This document shows, in pieces, positions 1,900-34,758 of a stretch of DNA of 64,000 nucleotides (within the stretch, counting starts at the first letter, position 1; the number at the start of each line of letters is the position of its first letter). Source of the DNA: Chloroflexota bacterium. GTDB lineage: Bacteria; Chloroflexota; Limnocylindria; Limnocylindrales; CSP1-4. Position numbers and translations under genes: made by a program. The DNA is taken from positions 1,450-65,449 of the forward strand of contig JANXWH010000133.1 in assembly GCA_025351245.1 (NCBI GenBank), written 5' to 3'. The notes under the pieces are model-generated. The model was given only the letters and a program-made list of their open reading frames with translations. It was not told the origin of the DNA and ran no database searches.

Positions 1900-3264
1900 T
1901 CAGGTCCGGCTCGTCCGCTTTGGCGGATTGGGCGGCTGGAAGAGCCACGTCTCCGGCGAGCCACCCTTCCCGAGGATACCGAGATTCGTGCCGTTGAGGG
2001 TGAACGAGGTGACGCCGGCGCTGCCGGTCCTGACCTCGACGGAGGTCGTGCCGCTGAAAATAAGCGTCTGGCCGTCGTTGACGACGAGCCCGCCGCTTCC
2101 GGTGGTCTTCGACACGGCGCCGTCGACCCACACCTTCAGCCATGCGCGACCGCCCTTGATCTCCACGATCAGGTTCACGCCCTGGTAGACGACCGTCACG
2201 TTCCGCGTCAGCGTGGTGGTCTTGCCCTCACCGCTCTTCGCGGCGATCGTCAGCGTCCAGCGACCGGCGGTAAGGTCGACGTTGCTGGTAAACGACCCGT
2301 CATTGGCGGGCGTGACGTCGATTGGCGCTGGCGAAGCCGGCGTGGGTGCGGCGGACGCCGTGGGCAGTCCTCCCGGCGCAGGGCCCACGTACGCCGCGGC
2401 GATGTTGACCGTCGTCGCGTCGGTGGCGTGGCCGGCCACGGGGATCGCCCCGTTCTGGAACGTGGCACCGTCCGCGGGCGAATCCACCGCGAGCGTTGGG
2501 GCGACGACCGGGCTGAACGGGACGGTGATCAGGAGTCGAACCGGATGCTCGGCGGACTTGCCGGTCTTCGGGTCGACCGCGCTGACGTCGAACTGGTTCT
2601 TGCCGCGCCGGAGCTCAACCGTGGCCAGCCACGCCCCGTCGCCGGCCGCGGTGATATTGAGCGGGTCGCGGCCCGGCGCTGCGATGGTGACGAGGCCGCC
2701 GGCGACGGTGGTCCCGCGGAGCGCGTACGTGCTGGCGCCCTCCGCCACCTCCGTCACCGCGGTCGGCGGCTGGACGACGCTGAGCGGCGGCGGCTCGGAG
2801 AAGCGGACGAGTTGGAAGCCGATGTAGGCGAGGATCGCGAGCACGACGACCGTGACGACCGCTGCGACCACGACGCCCGAGCTGAGCACGAGGCCCTTGC
2901 GGGCGGCCACCAGGGGCCGCGGCACGACGATCACCGGCTCGGGCGCGTCCGCCGGTGCCTCGCGGTGCCATTGGGCGACGGCCTCATCCGGGTCGAGACC
3001 CAGGTATTGCGCGTAGTTGCGCAGGAAGCCGCGGACGTAGACGCCGCCCGGCAGTGACGCGTAGTCGCCATGCTCGAGGGCCGCGAGGTAGGGGCGCCGG
3101 ATCTTCGTCTCGCGCTCCGCGCGAAGCAGGTCGATGCCCTTGGCCTCGCGTGCGGCAACCAGTCGCTCTCCCAGCGGATCGGTGCTTGCGCCCGGGCGCC
3201 AATCCATGATCGGCTCGCGATCCGGCTCCGCCCCGGCCGGGCGGGCGTGGTTGCGCGTCCTCAT
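1900..3264 (-). CDS. rodZ: RodZ-like cytoskeleton protein (XRE-type HTH, transmembrane helix, DUF4115-like C-terminus)
   Basis: Has the HTH LGERLVAAREAKGIDLLRAERETKIRRPYLAALE, then a hydrophobic segment VVVAAVVTVVVLAILAYIGF, a long Thr/Gly/Val-rich beta-like region and a DUF4115-like C-terminal end. Its ATG at 3264 overlaps the ftsK stop as ATGA. Confidence 0.65.
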   Translation of the reverse strand: MRTRNHARPAGAEPDREPIMDWRPGASTDPLGERLVAAREAKGIDLLRAERETKIRRPYLAALEHGDYASLPGGVYVRGFLRNYAQYLGLDPDEAVAQWHREAPADAPEPVIVVPRPLVAARKGLVLSSGVVVAAVVTVVVLAILAYIGFQLVRFSEPPPLSVVQPPTAVTEVAEGASTYALRGTTVAGGLVTIAAPGRDPLNITAAGDGAWLATVELRRGKNQFDVSAVDPKTGKSAEHPVRLLITVPFSPVVAPTLAVDSPADGATFQNGAIPVAGHATDATTVNIAAAYVGPAPGGLPTASAAPTPASPAPIDVTPANDGSFTSNVDLTAGRWTLTIAAKSGEGKTTTLTRNVTVVYQGVNLIVEIKGGRAWLKVWVDGAVSKTTGSGGLVVNDGQTLIFSGTTSVEVRTGSAGVTSFTLNGTNLGILGKGGSPETWLFQPPNPPKRTSRT

Positions 3265-7998: not shown

Positions 7999-9110
7999 GC
8001 CGGCGTCTCCGCCTCCGCGTGCGCGGCGCGGCGCGAGGCGGGCGCCACCCAGCCGCGCGCGGCGAGCAGCTCAGCAAGTTCAACGGCGTTCGTGGCCGCG
8101 CCCTTCCGCACATTGTCGGAGACGCACCAGAAGGCGAGGCCCCGCCCGTCCGGGATCGACGTGTCCTGCCGGACGCGGCCCACGTAGATCTCGTCGTGGC
8201 CGGCCGCCTCGGTCGCGAGCGGGTAGACATGGGCGGCCGGCTCGTCGCGGACGACCACCCCGGGCACGCCCGCGAAGAGAGCACGGGCCTCGGCAGGCGT
8301 CACGGCCGCGCGCGTCTCGACGTGCACCGCCTCAGAGTGGCCCACGAAGACCGGAACCCGGACGGCCGTGCAGGAAGCTCGCAGGTTGGGCAGGTGGAGG
8401 ATCTTGCGGCTCTCGGAGACGACCTTCCACTCCTCCTTCGTGTACCCGTTCTCCAGGAAGACGTCGATCTCCGGCAACGCGTTGAACGCGATCGGGTGCG
8501 GGTAGACCGAGGCCTGCTTGGGTGCCCCCGCTGCGTGCGCGCGGATCTGGGTCTCCAGCTCCGCGATCGCGTCCGCGCCCGTCCCCGAGACGGCCTGGTA
8601 CGTGTCCACGACGACGCGCTCGAGGCCGGGGCCGTCCCGCAGCGCCATCAGGAGCGGTACGAGCTGCATCGTGCTGCAGTTCGGGTTGGCAATGATGCCC
8701 TCGTGCGCCGCGAGGTCGTCGGGGTTGACCTGGCTGACGACGAGCGGAACCCCGGGCTCCATCCGCCACGCATTGGAGTTGTCGATCACCGTGCAGCCGC
8801 GGGCGACGGCCTGGGGCGCGAGCTCACGAGAGACGTCGGCACCGGCCGAGAAGAGCGCGATGTCCACTCCCTCGAACGCTTCCGGGATGGCCTCGAGCAC
8901 GGCAAGCGCGCGCCCTGCCACCGGGACGGTCATGCCGGCGGAGCGACCGGAGGCGAGGAGACGGAGCTCCGCGAATGGGAACGCCCGCTCCACCAGGACC
9001 GAGATCATCGTGCGGCCGACGACGCCGGTGGCGCCGACGACGGCGACCGTGAGGGGTCGAGTGGTCGTGAAGGACATGGCTCCGCTGCTCGTGAAAGGAC
9101 TGGCGGGCAC
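7995..9110 (-). CDS. asd: Aspartate-semialdehyde dehydrogenase
   Basis: LTVAVVGATGVVGRTMISVL...VIDNSNAWRMEPGVPLVVSQVNPD...CTAVRVPVFVGHSEAV. The start is either GTG at 9110 or ATG at 9077 (MSFTTT). Confidence 0.9.
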   Translation of the reverse strand: MPASPFTSSGAMSFTTTRPLTVAVVGATGVVGRTMISVLVERAFPFAELRLLASGRSAGMTVPVAGRALAVLEAIPEAFEGVDIALFSAGADVSRELAPQAVARGCTVIDNSNAWRMEPGVPLVVSQVNPDDLAAHEGIIANPNCSTMQLVPLLMALRDGPGLERVVVDTYQAVSGTGADAIAELETQIRAHAAGAPKQASVYPHPIAFNALPEIDVFLENGYTKEEWKVVSESRKILHLPNLRASCTAVRVPVFVGHSEAVHVETRAAVTPAEARALFAGVPGVVVRDEPAAHVYPLATEAAGHDEIYVGRVRQDTSIPDGRGLAFWCVSDNVRKGAATNAVELAELLAARGWVAPASRRAAHAEAETPA

Positions 9111-9117
9111 GGCGGGA

Positions 9118-9123
9118 GTATAG
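9118..9123 (-). promoter_or_regulatory. Extended -10 element TGcTATACT upstream of asd
   Basis: The minus strand reads cacgcTGCTATACTcccgccGTG. The -10 box lies 7 nt from the GTG at 9110, which would imply a leaderless or very short leader. The same motif recurs upstream of rplS. Confidence 0.4.
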
Positions 9124-9127
9124 CAGC

Positions 9128-9151
9128 GTGCCCCCGGTCTCCCGGGGGCAC
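9128..9151 (-). terminator. Perfect 10-bp GC hairpin (GUGCCCCCGG-GAGA-CCGGGGGCAC) immediately 3' of pnp
   Basis: An inverted repeat seen directly at 9128..9151, 47 nt downstream of the pnp stop. There is no strong U-tract. It is probably a pnp 3' stabiliser or terminator hairpin. Confidence 0.5.
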
Positions 9152-9198
9152 GCGATCTGTGGCGCGGGGCGGGCCGGCCCGTGATCGGGCCGCCGGGG

Positions 9199-11778
9199 TC
9201 AGCCCTTGGCGAGGTGACGCTGCATGGCGGCCTTGCGGGACAGGTTGACCCGGCCCTGGCGGTCGACTTCAGTGACGACCACCATCACCTCGTCGCCCAC
9301 CGAAACCACGTCCTCGACGGAGGGGACGTGGTAGTCGGCCAGCTCGCCGATGCGGACGAGGCCTTCCTTGCCCGGGAGGATCTCCACGAAGGCGCCGAAG
9401 GTCATGAGGCGGGTCACGGTACCCAGGTAGAGGGCGCCGATCTCGACCTCGCGGGTGAGGGACTCGATCCAGTGGATGGCCTTGCGGGCATTCTCGCCCT
9501 GCACGGCCGCGATCTCGACGGTGCCGTCATCCTCGACGTTGATCTCCGTCCCCGTCTCCTCCTGGATCTTCCGGATCATGGAGCCGCCCTTGCCGATGAT
9601 GTCGCGGATCTTCTCCGGGTTGATCTTGATCTTCGTGATGCGCGGCGCGAAGTCGCTCATCGTGTCGCGGGCGGAGGGCAGGACCTCGAGCATCTTGTCG
9701 AGGATGGTCATCCGCGCGGCGTGGGCCTTCTCGAGCCCCTGCCGGATGATCGCCTCGCTGATGCCGGTCACCTTGATGTCCATCTGGAGGGCGGTGATGC
9801 CATCCCGGGTGCCGGTGACCTTGAAGTCCATGTCCCCGAAGGCATCCTCCTTGCCGAGGATGTCGGTCAGGACGGTGAACGTCCCGTCCTTCTCCGACAT
9901 GAGGCCCATCGCCGCGCCGGCGACCGGCGCCGAGATCGGCACGCCGGCATCCATGAGCGCGAGGGTGGAGCCGCAGGTGGCCGCCATGGAGGTGGAGCCG
10001 TTGGACGTCACGCACTCCGAGACGAGGCGGATGACGTACGGGAACTCGTCCGAGCTGGGGAGCACGGGCAGGAGCGCCCGCTCCGCGAGGTGGCCGTGAC
10101 CGATCTCGCGCCGGCCGGGGCCGCGCATCATCTTGTTCTCGCCGGTGCTGTACGGCGGCATGTTGTAGTGGTGGATGAAGCGCTTCTCGGTCTCGGGGCT
10201 GATGGTGTCGATCCGCTGGACGTCCGAGGACGGGCCGAGCGTCGCGATCGTGAGGGCCTGCGTCTCACCGCGCGTGAAGAGGCCGGAGCCGTGCGCTCGC
10301 GGGAGGACACCGACCTCGACAGTGATCGTCCGGATCTCGTCGACGCCGCGCCCGTCCATGCGGATCCCCTCGGACAGGGTCAGCGTTCGAGCGGTCTTCT
10401 TGTGAACGAGCCCGAAGAGGGCCTTCGAGACGCGCGCCGTGCGGCGGGCCGCCTCCAGCTTCGCCTTCGCCTCGTCCTTCGACGTACGGTTGGTGCGGAT
10501 GGAGTCGGCGATCCCGGCCGAGAGCGTCTCGAGACGCGCCGGCAGCTCCGCGGCGATCGCCAGGAGCAGGGCGGCCGTCGCCTCGGCGTCCGGGAGGGCG
10601 CGGTGCGCCTGCTTCAGCTCGATGCCAAAGAAGCGCGAGAGCTCGCCCAGCGTGTAGCTGGGGAGGTCCGGGTAGCCGTCGCGGGCGAGCGTGAGCGTGT
10701 CGAGGTAGGTGCCCGGACGGATGCGCGTCCCGTCGGCGAGCGCCGCCTCCAGGAACGCGATGTCGAAGCCGACGGAGTGGCCCACGAGGGTCGCCTCGCC
10801 GATGAATGCGAGCGCCTGCTTGGCTGCTTCGACAGGGCTGGGCGCGCCGGCGACGTCCTTGTCCGTGATCCCGTGCATCTGGTTGCCGAAGATCGGCCGG
10901 CCCGGACTGACGAACGTGGACCAGCGGTCGACGACCTTGCCGCCCTTCACGCGAACGGCGGCCATCTCGATGAGGTCCGCCATCTCCGCGTGGGTGCCGG
11001 TCGTCTCGACGTCCAGCACGACGAACTCGGCGCCCGCCTTCGCTTTCGCGGCGAAGTCGAGGACCGAGCCGGTGCCGGCCTCCAGGAACGGGATCCGCTT
11101 CGTCTTGCCGACGGCCTCCTGGAGCTGGAGCTGGAGATCGATGAGCGGCTGGAGCGCACGGTGGCCGAACAGGATCGCCTCGGCCATCACGGACTCGGGG
11201 AGGATCTTCGCGCCGGCCTCCACCATCATGATCGCCTCGCGGGTGCCCGACACGATGAGGTCGAGATCGGACTCGGCGAGCTGCGGCATGGTGGGGTTGA
11301 TCACGAGCTCGCCGTCGATCCGGCCGATTCGGACTGCGCCGATGGGGCCGAGGAACGGGATCTCGCTGATCGTCAGCGCGGCGGACGCGGCGACGGTGCC
11401 GAGGACGTCCGGGTTGTTCTCCTGGTCCGTGGAGAGGACGGTGAGGACGACCTGCACGTCGTCCTTGTAGCCCTCCGGGAAGAGCGGCCGGATCGGCCGG
11501 TCCGTCAGGCGGGCGGCGAGGATCGCGGCCTCAGAGGGGCGCGATTCGCGCTTGATGAAGCCGCCGGGAATCTTGCCGGCCGCGTACATCCGCTCCTCGA
11601 AATCCACCGTGAGCGGGAAGAAGTCCAGGCCCGGGCGCGGCTCGGATCGGTTGGCGGTGCCGAGCACCACGGTGTCACCGTACGTGATGGTGACGGACCC
11701 GCCGGCAAGGCGGGCGAGCTTGCCTGTCTCGATGGTCAGGGGGCGTCCGCCGAATTCGACGGAAAAGGTGAGGGACAC
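9199..11778 (-). CDS. pnp: Polynucleotide phosphorylase (PNPase) with an inserted DEDDh (DnaQ-like) exonuclease domain
   Basis: Carries both RNase PH-like domains (...HGSGLFTRGETQAL...; ...GSTSMAATCGSTLALMDAGVPI...), plus KH and S1 domains. It is 859 aa instead of about 700. The extra roughly 165 aa (residues about 250-415) contain exo motifs DVETTG, HSVGFDIAFL and HRALPDAEATAALL. The GTG start at 11778 has the SD AAAGGAA. Confidence 0.95.
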   Translation of the reverse strand: MSLTFSVEFGGRPLTIETGKLARLAGGSVTITYGDTVVLGTANRSEPRPGLDFFPLTVDFEERMYAAGKIPGGFIKRESRPSEAAILAARLTDRPIRPLFPEGYKDDVQVVLTVLSTDQENNPDVLGTVAASAALTISEIPFLGPIGAVRIGRIDGELVINPTMPQLAESDLDLIVSGTREAIMMVEAGAKILPESVMAEAILFGHRALQPLIDLQLQLQEAVGKTKRIPFLEAGTGSVLDFAAKAKAGAEFVVLDVETTGTHAEMADLIEMAAVRVKGGKVVDRWSTFVSPGRPIFGNQMHGITDKDVAGAPSPVEAAKQALAFIGEATLVGHSVGFDIAFLEAALADGTRIRPGTYLDTLTLARDGYPDLPSYTLGELSRFFGIELKQAHRALPDAEATAALLLAIAAELPARLETLSAGIADSIRTNRTSKDEAKAKLEAARRTARVSKALFGLVHKKTARTLTLSEGIRMDGRGVDEIRTITVEVGVLPRAHGSGLFTRGETQALTIATLGPSSDVQRIDTISPETEKRFIHHYNMPPYSTGENKMMRGPGRREIGHGHLAERALLPVLPSSDEFPYVIRLVSECVTSNGSTSMAATCGSTLALMDAGVPISAPVAGAAMGLMSEKDGTFTVLTDILGKEDAFGDMDFKVTGTRDGITALQMDIKVTGISEAIIRQGLEKAHAARMTILDKMLEVLPSARDTMSDFAPRITKIKINPEKIRDIIGKGGSMIRKIQEETGTEINVEDDGTVEIAAVQGENARKAIHWIESLTREVEIGALYLGTVTRLMTFGAFVEILPGKEGLVRIGELADYHVPSVEDVVSVGDEVMVVVTEVDRQGRVNLSRKAAMQRHLAKG

Positions 11779-30410: not shown

Positions 30411-31109
30411 TCAGTCCAGGGCGATCCCGGGGTCGACTTCCGGCGCGGGCGGGCCCTCCGGGGCGTCGGGCCCGCGAGGCTCCGGGGCGTCGCTCGCAGA
30501 GGGCGGCTGGCTCTCGCGCTGCTCGCCCTTCCGGGGCCGCGGCGGGCGGGGCGGCCGAGGCGGCCGTATCTGGTCCGGCGTCGGCAGGTCCAGGGCGTCC
30601 GGGTCTGCCACGATCTCGCCCCGCCGCGGCGCCAGGATCCTGACGAACGGACGCGCGACCGGCAGGTCGAAGGCACCGCGCGGACCACCTTCCACGACCA
30701 GCATCTCCGTGCCGCCGGAACGGTAGACGTCCCGCACGGTTCCGAGCGCGAGGCCATCCGGGTCGACGACGGGACAGCCGCGCAGCTCGTGCCAGTAGTA
30801 GCTGCCGCGGGGCAATGGCGGGACAACGCCCGCGTCCGCCTCGAGGTAGACCGACAGGTAGGCGGCCGCCGCGTTTCGCGTCGGGATCTCGTTGAACCGG
30901 ATGATCCAGCCGGGCGCGGCGGCCCACGCCTCGGCGACCGTCAGCGGCTCGGGAGCGCCCTCCGGGTACAGGCGCGATCCCGGCGCGAACCGGGCGCCCG
31001 CGTCGTCGGTGAGCACCTCCACCCGGAGACCGCCGCGCACGCCGTGGAAGCCGCGGACGAGCGCGACGACGAGTCGCTCCCCGCCCGCGGCCGGCTGGCT
31101 GGAGATCAG
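30411..31109 (-). CDS. rimM: 16S rRNA processing protein RimM (Pro-rich C-terminal tail; start codon uncertain)
   Basis: ERLVVALVRGFHGVRGGLRVEVLTDD...PRGSYYWHELRGCPVVDPDGLALGTVRDVYRSGGTEMLVV. There is no in-frame ATG, GTG or TTG between the KH-gene stop and the conserved core. The only candidate is CTG at 31109, overlapping the KH-gene TGA. Confidence 0.75.
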   Translation of the reverse strand: MISSQPAAGGERLVVALVRGFHGVRGGLRVEVLTDDAGARFAPGSRLYPEGAPEPLTVAEAWAAAPGWIIRFNEIPTRNAAAAYLSVYLEADAGVVPPLPRGSYYWHELRGCPVVDPDGLALGTVRDVYRSGGTEMLVVEGGPRGAFDLPVARPFVRILAPRRGEIVADPDALDLPTPDQIRPPRPPRPPRPRKGEQRESQPPSASDAPEPRGPDAPEGPPAPEVDPGIALD

Positions 31110-31339
31110 ACTATCTCCAGCTGGAACTGCTCGCCGTCGCGGGCGCCGACGACCTTGAGGAGCGTTCGGAGTGCCTTTGCGACGCTCCCGTTCCGGCCGA
31201 TCACCTTGCCCATGTCGTCTTCCGCGACACGGAGCTCGATGACGGTCGTGCCGGCCTCCTGGCTGACCACGACCTCGACCTGGTCCGGGTGATCGACGAG
31301 CGACTTGGCGACGAACTCGACGAGCTGCTGAGCGGCCAT
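31106..31339 (-). CDS. KH-domain RNA-binding protein (UPF0109/YlqC family)
   Basis: MAAQQLVEFVAKSLVDHPDQVEVVVSQEAGTTVIELRVAEDDMGKVIGRNGSVAKALRTLLKV. It occupies the conserved rpsP-KH-rimM position. Confidence 0.8.
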   Translation of the reverse strand: MAAQQLVEFVAKSLVDHPDQVEVVVSQEAGTTVIELRVAEDDMGKVIGRNGSVAKALRTLLKVVGARDGEQFQLEIV

Positions 31340-31353
31340 CGCGGGCCCCTTCC

Positions 31354-31608
31354 CTACTTCGCGGCCGGCAGGACGCCGGCGTTTCGGAGGAGCCGCTCGA
31401 CGGTCTCGGTCGGGAGGGCGCCCTTCGCGATCCACGCCTTCGTCTTCTCGACGTCGACGGCGAAGTCAACCGGCTCGGTCCGGGGGTTGTAGTGGCCGAG
31501 GATCTCGATGGTGCGGCCGTCGCGGGGACTCCGGCTGTCGGCCACGACGACGCGATACGCCGGCTGCTTCGTCGCGCCGACGCGGGTGAGGCGAATGCGA
31601 GCTGCCAT
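31354..31608 (-). CDS. rpsP: 30S ribosomal protein S16
   Basis: [46 protein letters not shown]... The SD is AGGAGGAGAAG. Confidence 0.95.
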
Positions 31609-31636
31609 GTCCTTGTTCTTCTCCTCCTGCGTGGGT

Positions 31637-31678: not shown

Positions 31679-33421
31679 CTACTTGAACACGACCACGATG
31701 CGGCTGGTCCGCGTGGCGGCCGGCGACTTGGCGACGGCCGCGAAGGCGTCGAACGGCTCGAGGAACGGCTTCACGTCCGTGTCGTACTTCGCCTTCTCGG
31801 TGGCCGGGATCAGGCCTTCGAGGCCCTCCCGCAGGCCGGTGATGTTGACGTACGCGTCCATGACGCCGGCGCCGCCTGCGACGTCGACTGCGTGCGAGTA
31901 CCCCGCCTGGGCAGCGAGCCCGCCGCCGCCGGCCGTGCCGAGGACGCCCTTGACGAACTCGAGCGTCCCCACCGCGAACAGGTTGCCCTGGGCCGTTGCC
32001 GCGAGCGCCGGCAGGGCGACGCCGCTCGTGACCGGGAGTGTCACGACCGCGATCGTCCCCGCAGCGTACGGCTGCTCCGTGTAGGTGATCCCGGACGCGC
32101 CTCCGGCGAGCGCGAGCACGGCCTTGAGCTGGTCAAGGGTCCGCGTCGCTCCCGCGGGGTCCGTGGCGATGGCGGCCAGGCCGCCGCCCCAGGTGGTCCC
32201 ATCGCGGGTCACGGCGATCGCCGTGTCACCGGCCCAGCCGGCCAACGACTCCACCCCGCCGATCGCGGCGAGGGCCGTGTCAACCTGGTCGAGCGTGCCC
32301 TTCATGGATTGATCGCACGCGATCCCGGCCTTGATGCCGGACCAGAGCGCGACGAGTGCCGGGCCGGCCTGGCGACCTTCGAACGCGACGAGCGTTCCCG
32401 CTGGCAGGCGGGCAGCGATCGCGCTGGCCGTGTCCTTCGGGGCGAAGCTGGAGGCGGGCGAACCCGACGGGGCCGGCGCGACCTGGTCCATGACGAGCAC
32501 GCTGTCGGCAGCATGGGCGAACCCGGCCGACCAGTCCGGCAGGGCCGCGAGCGCATTGGTCAGGCATGGCTGCGGAATGGTGCTCGTGCTGCCGGCCATG
32601 GAGAGGACCGCGTCGAAGAGCGACCTGGTGTCGAGGTAGCCGAACCCGAGGTAGGCGCTCGGGGCAGCCTTCTTCGCGCCCACGAACGCGCTGGAGGCCG
32701 CGACCGGGCTGGCGCCCTTCGTGTCGAGGGCGGCCTTCACGGAGGCCTCCGGACCGAGCAGGAGGACCGTCCCGCGCGTGGCCCACGCGAGGGTCATGCC
32801 GTTCTTCTGGACCGTCGTGATCTGGCCGTCGCCGTACGTCGCGGTCGAGGGCGTCCCGCCGATCTGCTTCGCCATCCAGGCGGTGGCGGCTGCGACGTCC
32901 TTGACGCTGGCGAGGACCACGACGCCGCGGTCCGGCGCCTTGACCGATGACGGGTCCTTCTGGGCTGCGGCCGCCAGGTCGAGCACGTCGCGCGTGATCG
33001 CCACGCCCACCTCGCCGGCGACCCACGGCTTGAGGTCGGTCGTCCAGCTGATGCCGGACTTCTGGAGGAGCTGGTCAAGGGCCTGGTCGATCTTCGCGTC
33101 GAGCGAGGCCTGGTCCTTGAAGCCGGGGAACTTCGCGATGATGGCGCCGACGTTCTGGCGCTGGTCGCCGGGCAGGTCCGCGCGGCCTTCGAGGTAGACG
33201 ACCGTCCCGCTTGGGATCCAGCCCTCGATCGCGGACGTCGCGCTGCCCGATGCGAGCAGGACGGTGCCCACCGAGACGACCCCGACGACGAGCGCGACCA
33301 CGGCGAGCGCCACGCCCCACCGGGCGAGGCCCGCCGGGCGCGCGGGGCGGGCGGCCACGTTCGACGAGCCCCCCTGGTGCGGCATCTCGGAATCGACCGG
33401 GACGGGTGTGAACTCGGCCAT
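31679..33421 (-). CDS. Membrane-anchored extracytoplasmic protein of unknown function (580 aa; possibly DUF3352-like)
   Basis: The ATG at 33421 has a strong SD, GGGAGGAAG, 17 nt after the ffh stop. One N-terminal TM helix, [23 protein letters not shown], is followed by about 520 aa of an Ala/Gly/Thr/Val-rich domain with no recognisable catalytic motif. It is co-directional and tightly packed within the ffh...rpsP operon. Confidence 0.7.
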
Positions 33422-33438
33422 TGCTTCCTCCCTCGGCC

Positions 33439-34758
33439 TCAGCGGCCGAAGACCCCGGGGAGCCGGCGGCCCCCGCGGAGCTGCTTCATGAGTTTCTGCA
33501 TCTCGGCGAACTGCTTGACGAGTCGGTTGACCTCGACGATCGACGCGCCGGAGCCGGTGGCGATTCGGCGCCGCCGGCTCCCGTTGAGGATCGTCGGGTC
33601 GCGCCGCTCGCCCGAGGTCATCGAGCGAATGATCGCCTCGGTCCGTCCGAGATCGCCGCGGTCGACCGACTCCTGCGCCTGGCGCGCCATCCCGCCGAGG
33701 CCCGGGATCATCTCCATGACCTGTCCAAGCGGCCCCATCTTCTTGACCTGCTGGAGTTGGTCGAGCATATCTTCCAGGGTGAAGCTCCCGGACTGGATCT
33801 TCGCGGCAGCCTTCTCGGCTTGCGTCGTGTCGAAGGCGTCCTGTGCCCGCTCGATGAGGGTCAGCACGTCGCCCATCCCGAGGATCCGGCCGGCCAGGCG
33901 GTCCGGGTGGAACGGCTCCAGCGCATCGGTCTTCTCGCCCGTGCCGAGGAACTTGACCGGCAGCCCGGTGACCGCGCTGATCGAAAGGGCCGCGCCGCCC
34001 CGCGCGTCCCCGTCGATCTTCGTGAGGACCAGGCCGGTCAGCGGGACGGCCGCGGCAAATGCCTGCGCCACGCTCACGGCTTCCTGGCCGACCATCGCGT
34101 CGATGACGAGGAGCGTCTCCACGGGCCGGACCGCGTGCATGAGCTCGGTCACCTCGGCCATCAGGACCTCGTCCACGGTCAGCCGGCCGGCCGTGTCGAG
34201 GATCACGGTGTCGCGGACCTCGTGGCGTGCGTATGCGATCCCAAGCCTGCCGATCTCGGGCACGGGCGTCCCGGCCGGCGCGGCGAAGACCGGCAGGTCC
34301 AGGCTTGCCCCGAGCGTCACGAGCTGCTCGATCGCGGCCGGCCGGTACGGGTCCGCGGCCACGAGCAGGGGTCGGCGGCCGATCTTGACGATGTGGCGGG
34401 CGAGCTTCGCCGCTGTCGTCGTCTTGCCGGAGCCCTGCAGCCCGACGAGCGCGATGACTGCGGGGTTCCCCGCCAGGTGAAGCGTCCGGTCGCCGCCGGA
34501 TAGGAGCGTGGTCAGCTCCTCATTGACGATCTTGACGACCTGCTGGCCGGCGTTGAGGGACTCCAGGACGTCGGCGCCGATCGCGCGCTCGCGGACCCGG
34601 GCCGTGAAATCCTTGACGACCTTGAAGTTGACATCGGCCTCGAGGAGCGCGAGCCGCACCTCGCGCATCGCCGTCTCGACGTCGGCCTCGCTGATCCGGC
34701 CGCGACCGGTGAGCGAGCCGAGCGTCCTGCGGAGGCGCTCGGAGAGGGCGTCGAACAC
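33439..34758 (-). CDS. ffh: Signal recognition particle protein Ffh
   Basis: MFDALSERLRRTLGSL...GLQGSGKTTTAAKLA...DTAGR... plus an M-domain (methionine-rich C-terminus). Confidence 0.95.
   Translation of the reverse strand: MFDALSERLRRTLGSLTGRGRISEADVETAMREVRLALLEADVNFKVVKDFTARVRERAIGADVLESLNAGQQVVKIVNEELTTLLSGGDRTLHLAGNPAVIALVGLQGSGKTTTAAKLARHIVKIGRRPLLVAADPYRPAAIEQLVTLGASLDLPVFAAPAGTPVPEIGRLGIAYARHEVRDTVILDTAGRLTVDEVLMAEVTELMHAVRPVETLLVIDAMVGQEAVSVAQAFAAAVPLTGLVLTKIDGDARGGAALSISAVTGLPVKFLGTGEKTDALEPFHPDRLAGRILGMGDVLTLIERAQDAFDTTQAEKAAAKIQSGSFTLEDMLDQLQQVKKMGPLGQVMEMIPGLGGMARQAQESVDRGDLGRTEAIIRSMTSGERRDPTILNGSRRRRIATGSGASIVEVNRLVKQFAEMQKLMKQLRGGRRLPGVFGR

Follow-up and report, generated by a model that had tools for sequence, protein, structure and literature searches.

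The question raised by this locus is why a 1.7-kb gene for a membrane protein should stand between ffh, the gene for the SRP54 homologue of the signal recognition particle (SRP), and rpsP, the gene for ribosomal protein S16, and what its product might do there. The locus lies in a stretch of 64,000 nucleotides (nt) from a Chloroflexota bacterium (assembly GCA_025351245.1, contig JANXWH010000133.1; this whole 64-kb stretch is hereafter called the window), for which a preliminary description had pointed out a membrane-anchored protein of 580 amino acids (aa) with no assigned function. We found that the gene is a newly found member of the catalogued family DUF3352 (Pfam PF11832), which has no described function, that its product is predicted to carry one N-terminal membrane anchor and a duplicated outward domain, and that its relatives stand next to ffh and rpsP as well. 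Taken together, the identity, topology and architecture of the protein are proposed with high confidence, while a tentative proposal is made for its function.

The open reading frame (ORF), its Shine-Dalgarno sequence GGGAGGAAG and the 17-nt spacer behind ffh were all present as first described. The ffh stop codon occupies 33441-33439 and is followed by the spacer at 33438-33422 (GGCCGAGGGAGGAAGCA), in which the GGAGG of the Shine-Dalgarno sequence lies 5 nt from the ATG. The GC content at third codon positions is 0.93, the same level as in the neighbouring real genes of this window with 72.5% GC. Homologues were found for the minus-strand frame and none for the overlapping plus-strand ORFs, hence we regard the latter as high-GC artefacts. 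A richness in Ala, Gly, Thr and Val had been taken as a property of the extracytoplasmic domain; the composition is real (A 19%, G 11.4%, V 9.7%, L 8.8%, T 7.8%), but it is explained by the GC content of about 72% of the genome and does not mark a special low-complexity domain.

A comparison with DUF3352 had been proposed earlier, and the Pfam model indeed matched the protein with 66.7 bits (E 2e-18) against a gathering cutoff of 26.8. The match spans residues 96-577 and model positions 62-532 of 536. With 580 aa and a single full-length domain the protein has the usual build of the family, typically of about 540-600 aa, and the relatives, of 570-690 aa, align end to end. All 151 homologues retrieved from a word index carry PF11832 and are annotated as hypothetical, and full-length homologues range from 91% down to 24% identity. 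When 1.84 billion cluster representatives were searched exhaustively with HMMER, 2,248 of them came out as relatives at E<=1e-3, and 375 still did so at E<=1e-30; nearly all measure 570-690 aa, and they stand for approximately 2,250 clusters at 50% identity. Divergent members of the clade score 42-99 bits against the Pfam model and, since these scores are modest, we consider the ffh-linked Chloroflexota group to be a distant branch of DUF3352. No NCBIfam model matches the protein, and the PDB sequences gave no meaningful match to the single protein and none to a 50-sequence family profile at E<=10. In line with the earlier statement that no catalytic motif was recognisable, no enzyme, catalytic or lipoprotein family was matched in Pfam, NCBIfam or the PDB sequences. 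A Pfam STN match (E 0.05-0.1, 19 residues) was rejected as noise, and no paper mentioning DUF3352, PF11832 or IPR021787 was found in the searchable literature.

The closest genome locus, and the only one returned when genome contigs were searched with the single DUF3352 protein, is that of the metagenome-assembled genome (MAG) Chloroflexota bacterium isolate Chersky.10_44 (L001), with 92% identity in the DUF3352 protein and 99% in S16. Named relatives of both the DUF3352 protein and Ffh come only from MAGs labelled Chloroflexi bacterium, no wider range of taxa was reached among the DUF3352 relatives by a second homology search based on the diverse alignment A2, and a tblastn search of plasmids gave no match.

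The claim of one transmembrane helix followed by an outward domain also held, both for this protein and across the family. Apart from the N-terminal helix (Table 1), the sole Kyte-Doolittle 19-residue window above 1.6 lies at residues 455-459 (1.89), within a confidently modelled buried beta-strand. One N-terminal hydrophobic helix was present in all 130 full-length family representatives, starting 7-121 residues in (median 55), and a lipobox-like motif was seen in one of the 130 and not in the 580-aa protein. In a 68-sequence alignment with 28% mean identity, which was used for all counts of charges, Tat motifs, tails and cysteines, the 15 aa before the helix hold on average 3.4 Lys and Arg residues, against 0.9 after it; more of these residues precede than follow the helix in 63 of the 68 sequences, and fewer in none. 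The tails in front of the helix measure 26-117 aa in the relatives, contain 19% Pro and are unconserved; in the AlphaFold2 model the predicted local distance difference test score (pLDDT) is below 50 across residues 1-60. The cysteine count is 0, 2 or 4 in 65/68 sequences, and 49 of 50 proteins of the near clade have exactly two, which correspond to C286 and C369. These two residues probably form a disulfide, which, like the even counts, would fit an oxidising, extracytoplasmic location. Sequence rules thus support a type II signal anchor throughout the family, with the N-terminus inside and the C-terminus outside, rather than a cleaved signal peptide.

The AlphaFold2 model built with the family alignment (pLDDT 81, predicted template modelling score (pTM) 0.79) shows residues 61-580 as repeated beta-alpha units, which can be divided into an N-terminal and a C-terminal module (the N-module and C-module). 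The two halves were aligned by hhalign with a probability of 97.3% (E 1.8e-11, 28% identity) and are therefore homologous, from which it follows that the ectodomain of about 520 aa is a tandem duplication of an alpha/beta/alpha module of about 250 aa. The C-module was modelled well on its own (pLDDT 89, pTM 0.83), and the N-module alone matches positions 62-200 of the Pfam model. Conservation in the family is strongest in a signature at the start of the N-module, E-x-R-x-D-L-P-G-D-Q-R...F-P-G-F-x-D-Q; in alignment A2 (28% mean identity), its residues E78, R80, D82, P84, G85, Q87, F98, P99, G100, F101 and D103 reach a conservation of at least 90%. The signature is degenerate in the C-module, indicating that the two modules are functionally asymmetric.

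When the whole model was compared with the PDB by Foldseek, TP0453 of Treponema pallidum (3K8G-3K8J) was the sole significant protein (E 1e-5, probability 1.0), with an alignment of about 275 columns that covers about half of the query. For the C-module alone TP0453 was again the only significant match, with probability 1.0 over all 250 residues of the module, at template modelling (TM) scores of 0.41-0.44. TP0453 has an alpha/beta/alpha fold with amphipathic helices and is a proposed carrier of lipid or glycolipid (PMC5421087). It appears to resemble each module of about 250 aa in size and alpha/beta/alpha architecture, and both proteins are extracytoplasmic and membrane-tethered. TP0453, however, is a single-module lipoprotein of a spirochaete, anchored by acyl chains and associated with the outer membrane, whereas the DUF3352 protein of the Chloroflexota combines two fused modules with a transmembrane helix and a cytoplasmic tail and has no lipobox. 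Weaker, partial Foldseek matches (probability 0.3-0.57) were obtained to the PsbP/Mog1-like domains of mycobacterial TiME (7cu8/7cu9), the extracellular sensor domain of PknH (4esq), DcrB (6e8a) and PsbP; they share part of a core of beta-sheet plus helices and the outer-face location, over about 95-130 columns at TM scores of 0.2-0.3, and homology is undemonstrated.

The next line of evidence comes from gene order, and the earlier suggestion to look for conservation at the locus was well rewarded. A metagenome scan with the family patterns RADLPGDQ and FPGF[AK]DQ[AS] yielded 80 loci, with DUF3352 proteins of 92% to 28% identity. The patterns were drawn from alignment A1, as A2 was too divergent, and they favour members that keep the signature motif. 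These 80 loci, together with L001-L006 and L087, were probed with the Ffh, S16, KH and FtsY proteins of the window itself, and all loci surveyed appear to belong to one Chloroflexota lineage. Ffh was directly upstream on the same strand in 68/68 loci with enough flank, and S16 directly downstream in 75/75; moreover, the gene was found at all three loci that were reached via Ffh, a route without DUF3352 bias. On large contigs with DUF3352 proteins at 50, 45, 37 and 24% identity, the block extends as smc-ftsY-ffh-DUF3352-rpsP-khpA-rimM-trmD-rplS-rnhB-yraN-rpsB-tsf-pyrH. Between ftsY and ffh, distant relatives carry an opposite-strand transporter of the major facilitator superfamily (MFS; L087 3327-4631, L088 5157-5944), L090 has an inserted DUF4440 protein, and gaps of approximately 1.4-2.5 kb separate FtsY from Ffh in many of L023-L086. 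Despite these insertions, the ffh-DUF3352-rpsP junctions were unsplit in every locus surveyed. Spacers from ffh to the DUF3352 gene measure 9-32 nt in the called loci, which strongly implies that the two genes are co-transcribed.

The DUF3352 protein has evolved far faster than its neighbours. Identities of DUF3352, Ffh and S16 were 81%, 95% and 97% in the close bin, 49%, 84% and 89% in the middle bin, and 32%, 75% and 71% in the distant bin. Such a difference is usual for surface-exposed proteins.

In Bacillus subtilis the corresponding order is ylxM-ffh-rpsP-ylqC-ylqD-rimM-trmD-rplS, where YlxM precedes ffh and YlqC/KhpA follows rpsP, and the trmD operon of Escherichia coli is rpsP-rimM-trmD-rplS. 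The backbone of ffh, rpsP, the gene of a KH protein, rimM, trmD and rplS follows the same order here; in contrast to these operons, in which no gene lies between ffh and rpsP, a 1.7-kb membrane-protein gene is found there throughout the Chloroflexota lineage. It had been stated in the preliminary description that other bacteria carry small genes of the YlxM/YlqC type at this position, which is imprecise, as the B. subtilis order places both outside the ffh-rpsP interval. YlxM and YlqC (KhpA) are cytoplasmic helix-turn-helix and KH proteins of about 80-110 aa, whereas the DUF3352 protein is a 580-aa membrane protein without such a Pfam domain. Since a KhpA-type gene is also present in the window, the DUF3352 gene is an addition to and not a replacement of the small genes.

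The spacer between the DUF3352 gene and rpsP contains the perfect 12-bp stem-loop reported before, a GC-rich hairpin of sequence GGGCCGUCGUCC-GGGCU-GGACGACGGCCC. Its stem is followed by AACCCACGCAGG, without the U-tract of an intrinsic terminator, and a consensus scan misses it; a scan for sigma-70 promoters was empty, and the one for terminators showed nothing relevant. Two perfect hairpins of at least 10 bp are present in the window, where about 0.2 of at least 12 bp would be expected by chance, and both lie in short spacers just past minus-strand genes (the DUF3352 gene and pnp), neither with a U-tract. The second, also of 12 bp, is found in the pnp-asd spacer at 9126-9153 on the minus strand (GCGUGCCCCCGG-GAGA-CCGGGGGCACGC) and is followed by TGCTATACTCCCGCC and then by the GTG start of asd at 9110; a TATACT in this spacer is a possible -10-like box near the asd start, which would imply an asd mRNA with a short leader or none. 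These GC-rich hairpins without a U-tract seem to be the transcript-end or processing signal of this genome, and the one behind the DUF3352 gene may end or process the transcript before rpsP. Relatives that share at least 71% identity keep it, and 3 of its 12 pairs show compensatory changes (alignment A4); across the near clade, hardly any variation is seen in the 21 nt that precede the rpsP ATG. As only 29 nt separate the hairpin from this ATG, there is no room for a promoter behind it, so that rpsP must depend on read-through, on processing or on a promoter located within the upstream gene. A family-wide hairpin was rejected, as the longer spacers overall fold no better than shuffled sequences (median z -0.58). 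Among 76 unique DUF3352-rpsP spacers, 15 are shorter than 30 nt and one contains TTTT; in some lineages the spacer is 15-17 nt, and ffh, the DUF3352 gene and rpsP are there necessarily co-transcribed.

Based on these results, we propose with a probability of roughly 40% that the DUF3352 protein is non-enzymatic and, anchored in the cytoplasmic membrane, serves on its outer face as a binder, carrier or scaffold of hydrophobic components of the envelope. Its parts, proposed with the high confidence stated above, are a short proline-rich cytoplasmic tail, one transmembrane helix and a duplicated outward domain of about 520 residues, the two fused modules of which might act like a pair of TP0453-like units and bind lipid, glycolipid or acylated protein. 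Translation from the ffh mRNA would keep the protein at a constitutive, growth-coupled level, and with its long signal anchor it would be a typical client of SRP. As a transcript end or processing site, the hairpin downstream could uncouple this level from that of the much more highly expressed rpsP-khpA-rimM-trmD-rplS. The gene, its family, the topology signals, the duplication, the class of fold and the strict synteny are shown by the data; the type of ligand, the carrier or scaffold role and the role of the hairpin are the parts that we infer.

Several results weigh against this proposal. The similarity to TP0453 is accompanied by TM scores below 0.5, a root-mean-square deviation of 8-9 A and an identity of 7-11%, and no sequence or profile link to TP0453 was found when the family profile was compared with the PDB sequences; judged from the models, the likeness is architectural, with homology unproven. 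LprG, LppX and LolA, which are classical lipid carriers, were absent from the top 50 Foldseek PDB matches of either model, and the fold of LolA, LppX and LprG, an unclosed beta-barrel with a helical plug, is not matched by the DUF3352 models. The amphipathicity of the helices is unremarkable and hydrophobic moments were not discriminating. Furthermore, conservation is highest at polar or charged residues (E78, R80, D82, D86, Q87, and D103), which would fit a head-group or protein-protein site, or even a catalytic one, no less well than lipid binding. No hairpin is present where only 15-17 nt separate the DUF3352 gene from rpsP, and across the family it does not reach significance. Finally, the whole block from smc to pyrH is conserved in this lineage, and synteny may therefore reflect operon inertia and not functional coupling.

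It is doubtful, although the position of the gene would then have a function behind it, that the protein is an extracytoplasmic holdase or assembly factor of the SRP-Sec/YidC pathway, which like the membrane-anchored PpiD/YfgM or the lipoprotein PrsA receives polypeptides just after their translocation, at the exit of the translocon. The topology and size are those of PpiD, with an N-in single anchor and a large outward domain in a protein of about 600 aa, and a genetic tie to the protein-targeting machinery is a further point in common with the PpiD and PrsA type; the analogy is one of function only. Such a role would agree with the ffh junction, which was never broken in the 68 loci although an MFS transporter and other genes entered between ftsY and ffh, with the short spacers implying one mRNA with ffh, and with the fast evolution (32% identity where Ffh keeps 75%) that is common in client-facing envelope proteins. 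However, no SurA-like, parvulin or other chaperone domain was detected in either half by Pfam at E<=5 or among the fold matches, the best structural analogue is associated with lipid and is not a chaperone, and gene adjacency alone is a weak sign of physical partnership. A bolder version, which we rate as quite unlikely, is that the protein acts outside the cytoplasm as an obligatory partner of SRP and Sec-YidC that is specific to the lineage, belonging to a new and structurally unrelated class of holdases or lipid-assisted insertion factors built from duplicated TP0453-like modules; if true, this would explain why the gene was never parted from ffh in the clade. If, on the other hand, the ffh link is a historical insertion locked into the operon, as the conservation of the entire smc-to-pyrH order would allow, position may carry no functional message, and the ectodomain could form an oligomer that serves as scaffold or conduit in the envelope, or be a PsbP/Mog1-like sensor. 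We find this unlikely as well; in the envelope, the soluble domain of TiME assembles into oligomeric rings and tubes (PMC8378821), and the partial matches to TiME, PknH, DcrB and PsbP point in this direction, but these are the short, low-scoring alignments mentioned above, the tail is proline-rich and unconserved without a cytoplasmic signalling domain, and the pTM of 0.79 suggests a compact two-module monomer.

The signature motif suggests a further explanation, namely that of an unrecognised extracytoplasmic enzyme, for instance a hydrolase or transferase with wall or lipid substrates and a site near the membrane made up of E78, R80, D82, D86, Q87 and D103. The strongest conservation of the family does fall on this charged motif, and its presence in the N-module with degeneration in the C-module is typical of a pair of active and inactive domains. 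Yet neither sequence nor fold matched any enzyme family, the motif is unlike any catalytic signature we could name, and conserved loops rich in Pro and Gly are often structural, so that an enzymatic role appears improbable. Far less credit is given to a cleaved signal peptide, which would leave the mature protein secreted or wall-associated. The small residues ASGSATSA after the helix could serve signal peptidase I, but the hydrophobic core measures 23 residues, the stretch in front of it (34 residues here and 26-117 in relatives) far exceeds the n-regions of Sec signals, a Tat-like RR motif occurs in just 4 of the 68 sequences, and a lipobox is absent. Accordingly, a signal peptide of this kind is highly improbable. 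The membrane-tethered binder, carrier or scaffold is thus the reading that we prefer, in spite of the shared topology with PpiD and PrsA, from which the DUF3352 protein differs in having no SurA-like or parvulin domain and no similarity in fold.

Table 1. Positions of the DUF3352 gene, the parts of its product and the flanking elements in the window
Feature	Coordinates	Strand	Remarks and evidence
ffh (SRP54 homologue)	33439..34758	minus	directly upstream; Pfam SRP54_N, SRP54, SRP_SPB
Shine-Dalgarno GGGAGGAAG of DUF3352 gene	33424..33432	minus	within ffh spacer; read from sequence
DUF3352-family coding sequence	31679..33421	minus	580 aa, ATG start, stop codon included; ORF list, Pfam PF11832, full-length homologues
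Cytoplasmic N-terminal tail, residues 1-34 (predicted)	33320..33421	minus	predicted disordered
Single transmembrane signal-anchor helix, residues 35-57 (predicted)	33251..33319	minus	maximum of Kyte-Doolittle 19-residue window 2.75
N-terminal extracytoplasmic alpha/beta module, residues 61-330 (predicted)	32432..33241	minus	AlphaFold2, hhalign
Signature motif, residues 78-104	33110..33190	minus	most conserved family stretch
C-terminal extracytoplasmic alpha/beta module, residues 331-580 (predicted)	31682..32431	minus	AlphaFold2, Foldseek
Perfect 12-bp GC-rich hairpin, 5-nt loop	31638..31666	minus	between DUF3352 stop codon and rpsP
rpsP Shine-Dalgarno AGGAGGAG	31621..31628	minus	alignment A4
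rpsP (ribosomal protein S16)	31354..31608	minus	directly downstream; Pfam Ribosomal_S16
KhpA-type KH gene	31106-31336	minus	Pfam

The surroundings of the locus are housekeeping throughout, and every confidently called gene at 1900-63241 is on the minus strand. FtsY, Ffh, S16, the KhpA-type KH protein, RimM, TrmD, L19 and RNase HII were confirmed by Pfam as neighbours. The genes of the window include ileS, priA, a fakA-like gene, recG, rnc, smc, ftsY, ffh, rpsP to rplS, rnhB, yraN, rpsB, and tsf, as well as pyrH, frr, uppS, cdsA, dxr, rseP, infB, an nrnA-like gene, pnp, asd, rnj, and ftsK. The tRNA scan found no tRNA genes in the 64 kb, and no Rfam family reached its gathering score. RimM (30411-31100, minus strand) has a Pro/Arg-rich low-complexity tail (...PPRPPRPPRPRKGEQRESQPPSASDAPEPRGPDAPEGPPAPEVDPGIALD) past its PRC-barrel domain, and in the relative L004 a single 565-aa call at 8621-10318 combines RimM, PRC_RimM and TrmD (tRNA_m1G_MT), being either a fusion or an artefact of assembly or gene calling. 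The product of pnp (9199-11778, minus strand, 859 aa) contains two RNase_PH domains, RNase_PH_C, KH and S1, and in addition a match to Pfam RNase_T, a DEDD exonuclease (E 8.6e-27, residues 253-405), between the RNase PH cores; this unusual domain insertion sits where an all-alpha domain normally lies. Beside ftsK, a 454-aa protein (1900-3264, minus strand) shows an unusual pairing of an N-terminal HTH_25 helix-turn-helix domain of the RodZ type with a Glucodextran_B-like domain (E 1e-12).

Three of these findings seem not to have been described in the searchable literature: the duplicated TP0453-like module, the signal-anchor topology of the whole family and the unbroken ffh-DUF3352-rpsP linkage. 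Together they provide testable handles for DUF3352, namely a defined topology, a duplicated module with a sharply conserved polar motif in its N-terminal copy only, and a link to ffh. For specialists this is a useful lead rather than a surprise, in that a bare domain of unknown function becomes a testable candidate in envelope biology or protein targeting. The host lineage comprises widespread and abundant uncultured Chloroflexota of soil, sediment and permafrost, of whose envelope biology hardly anything is known. Should the link to ffh have no functional basis, the protein would still be a constitutively expressed, surface-exposed marker of this lineage, whereas a functional link would make it a new accessory factor of envelope biogenesis or protein targeting.

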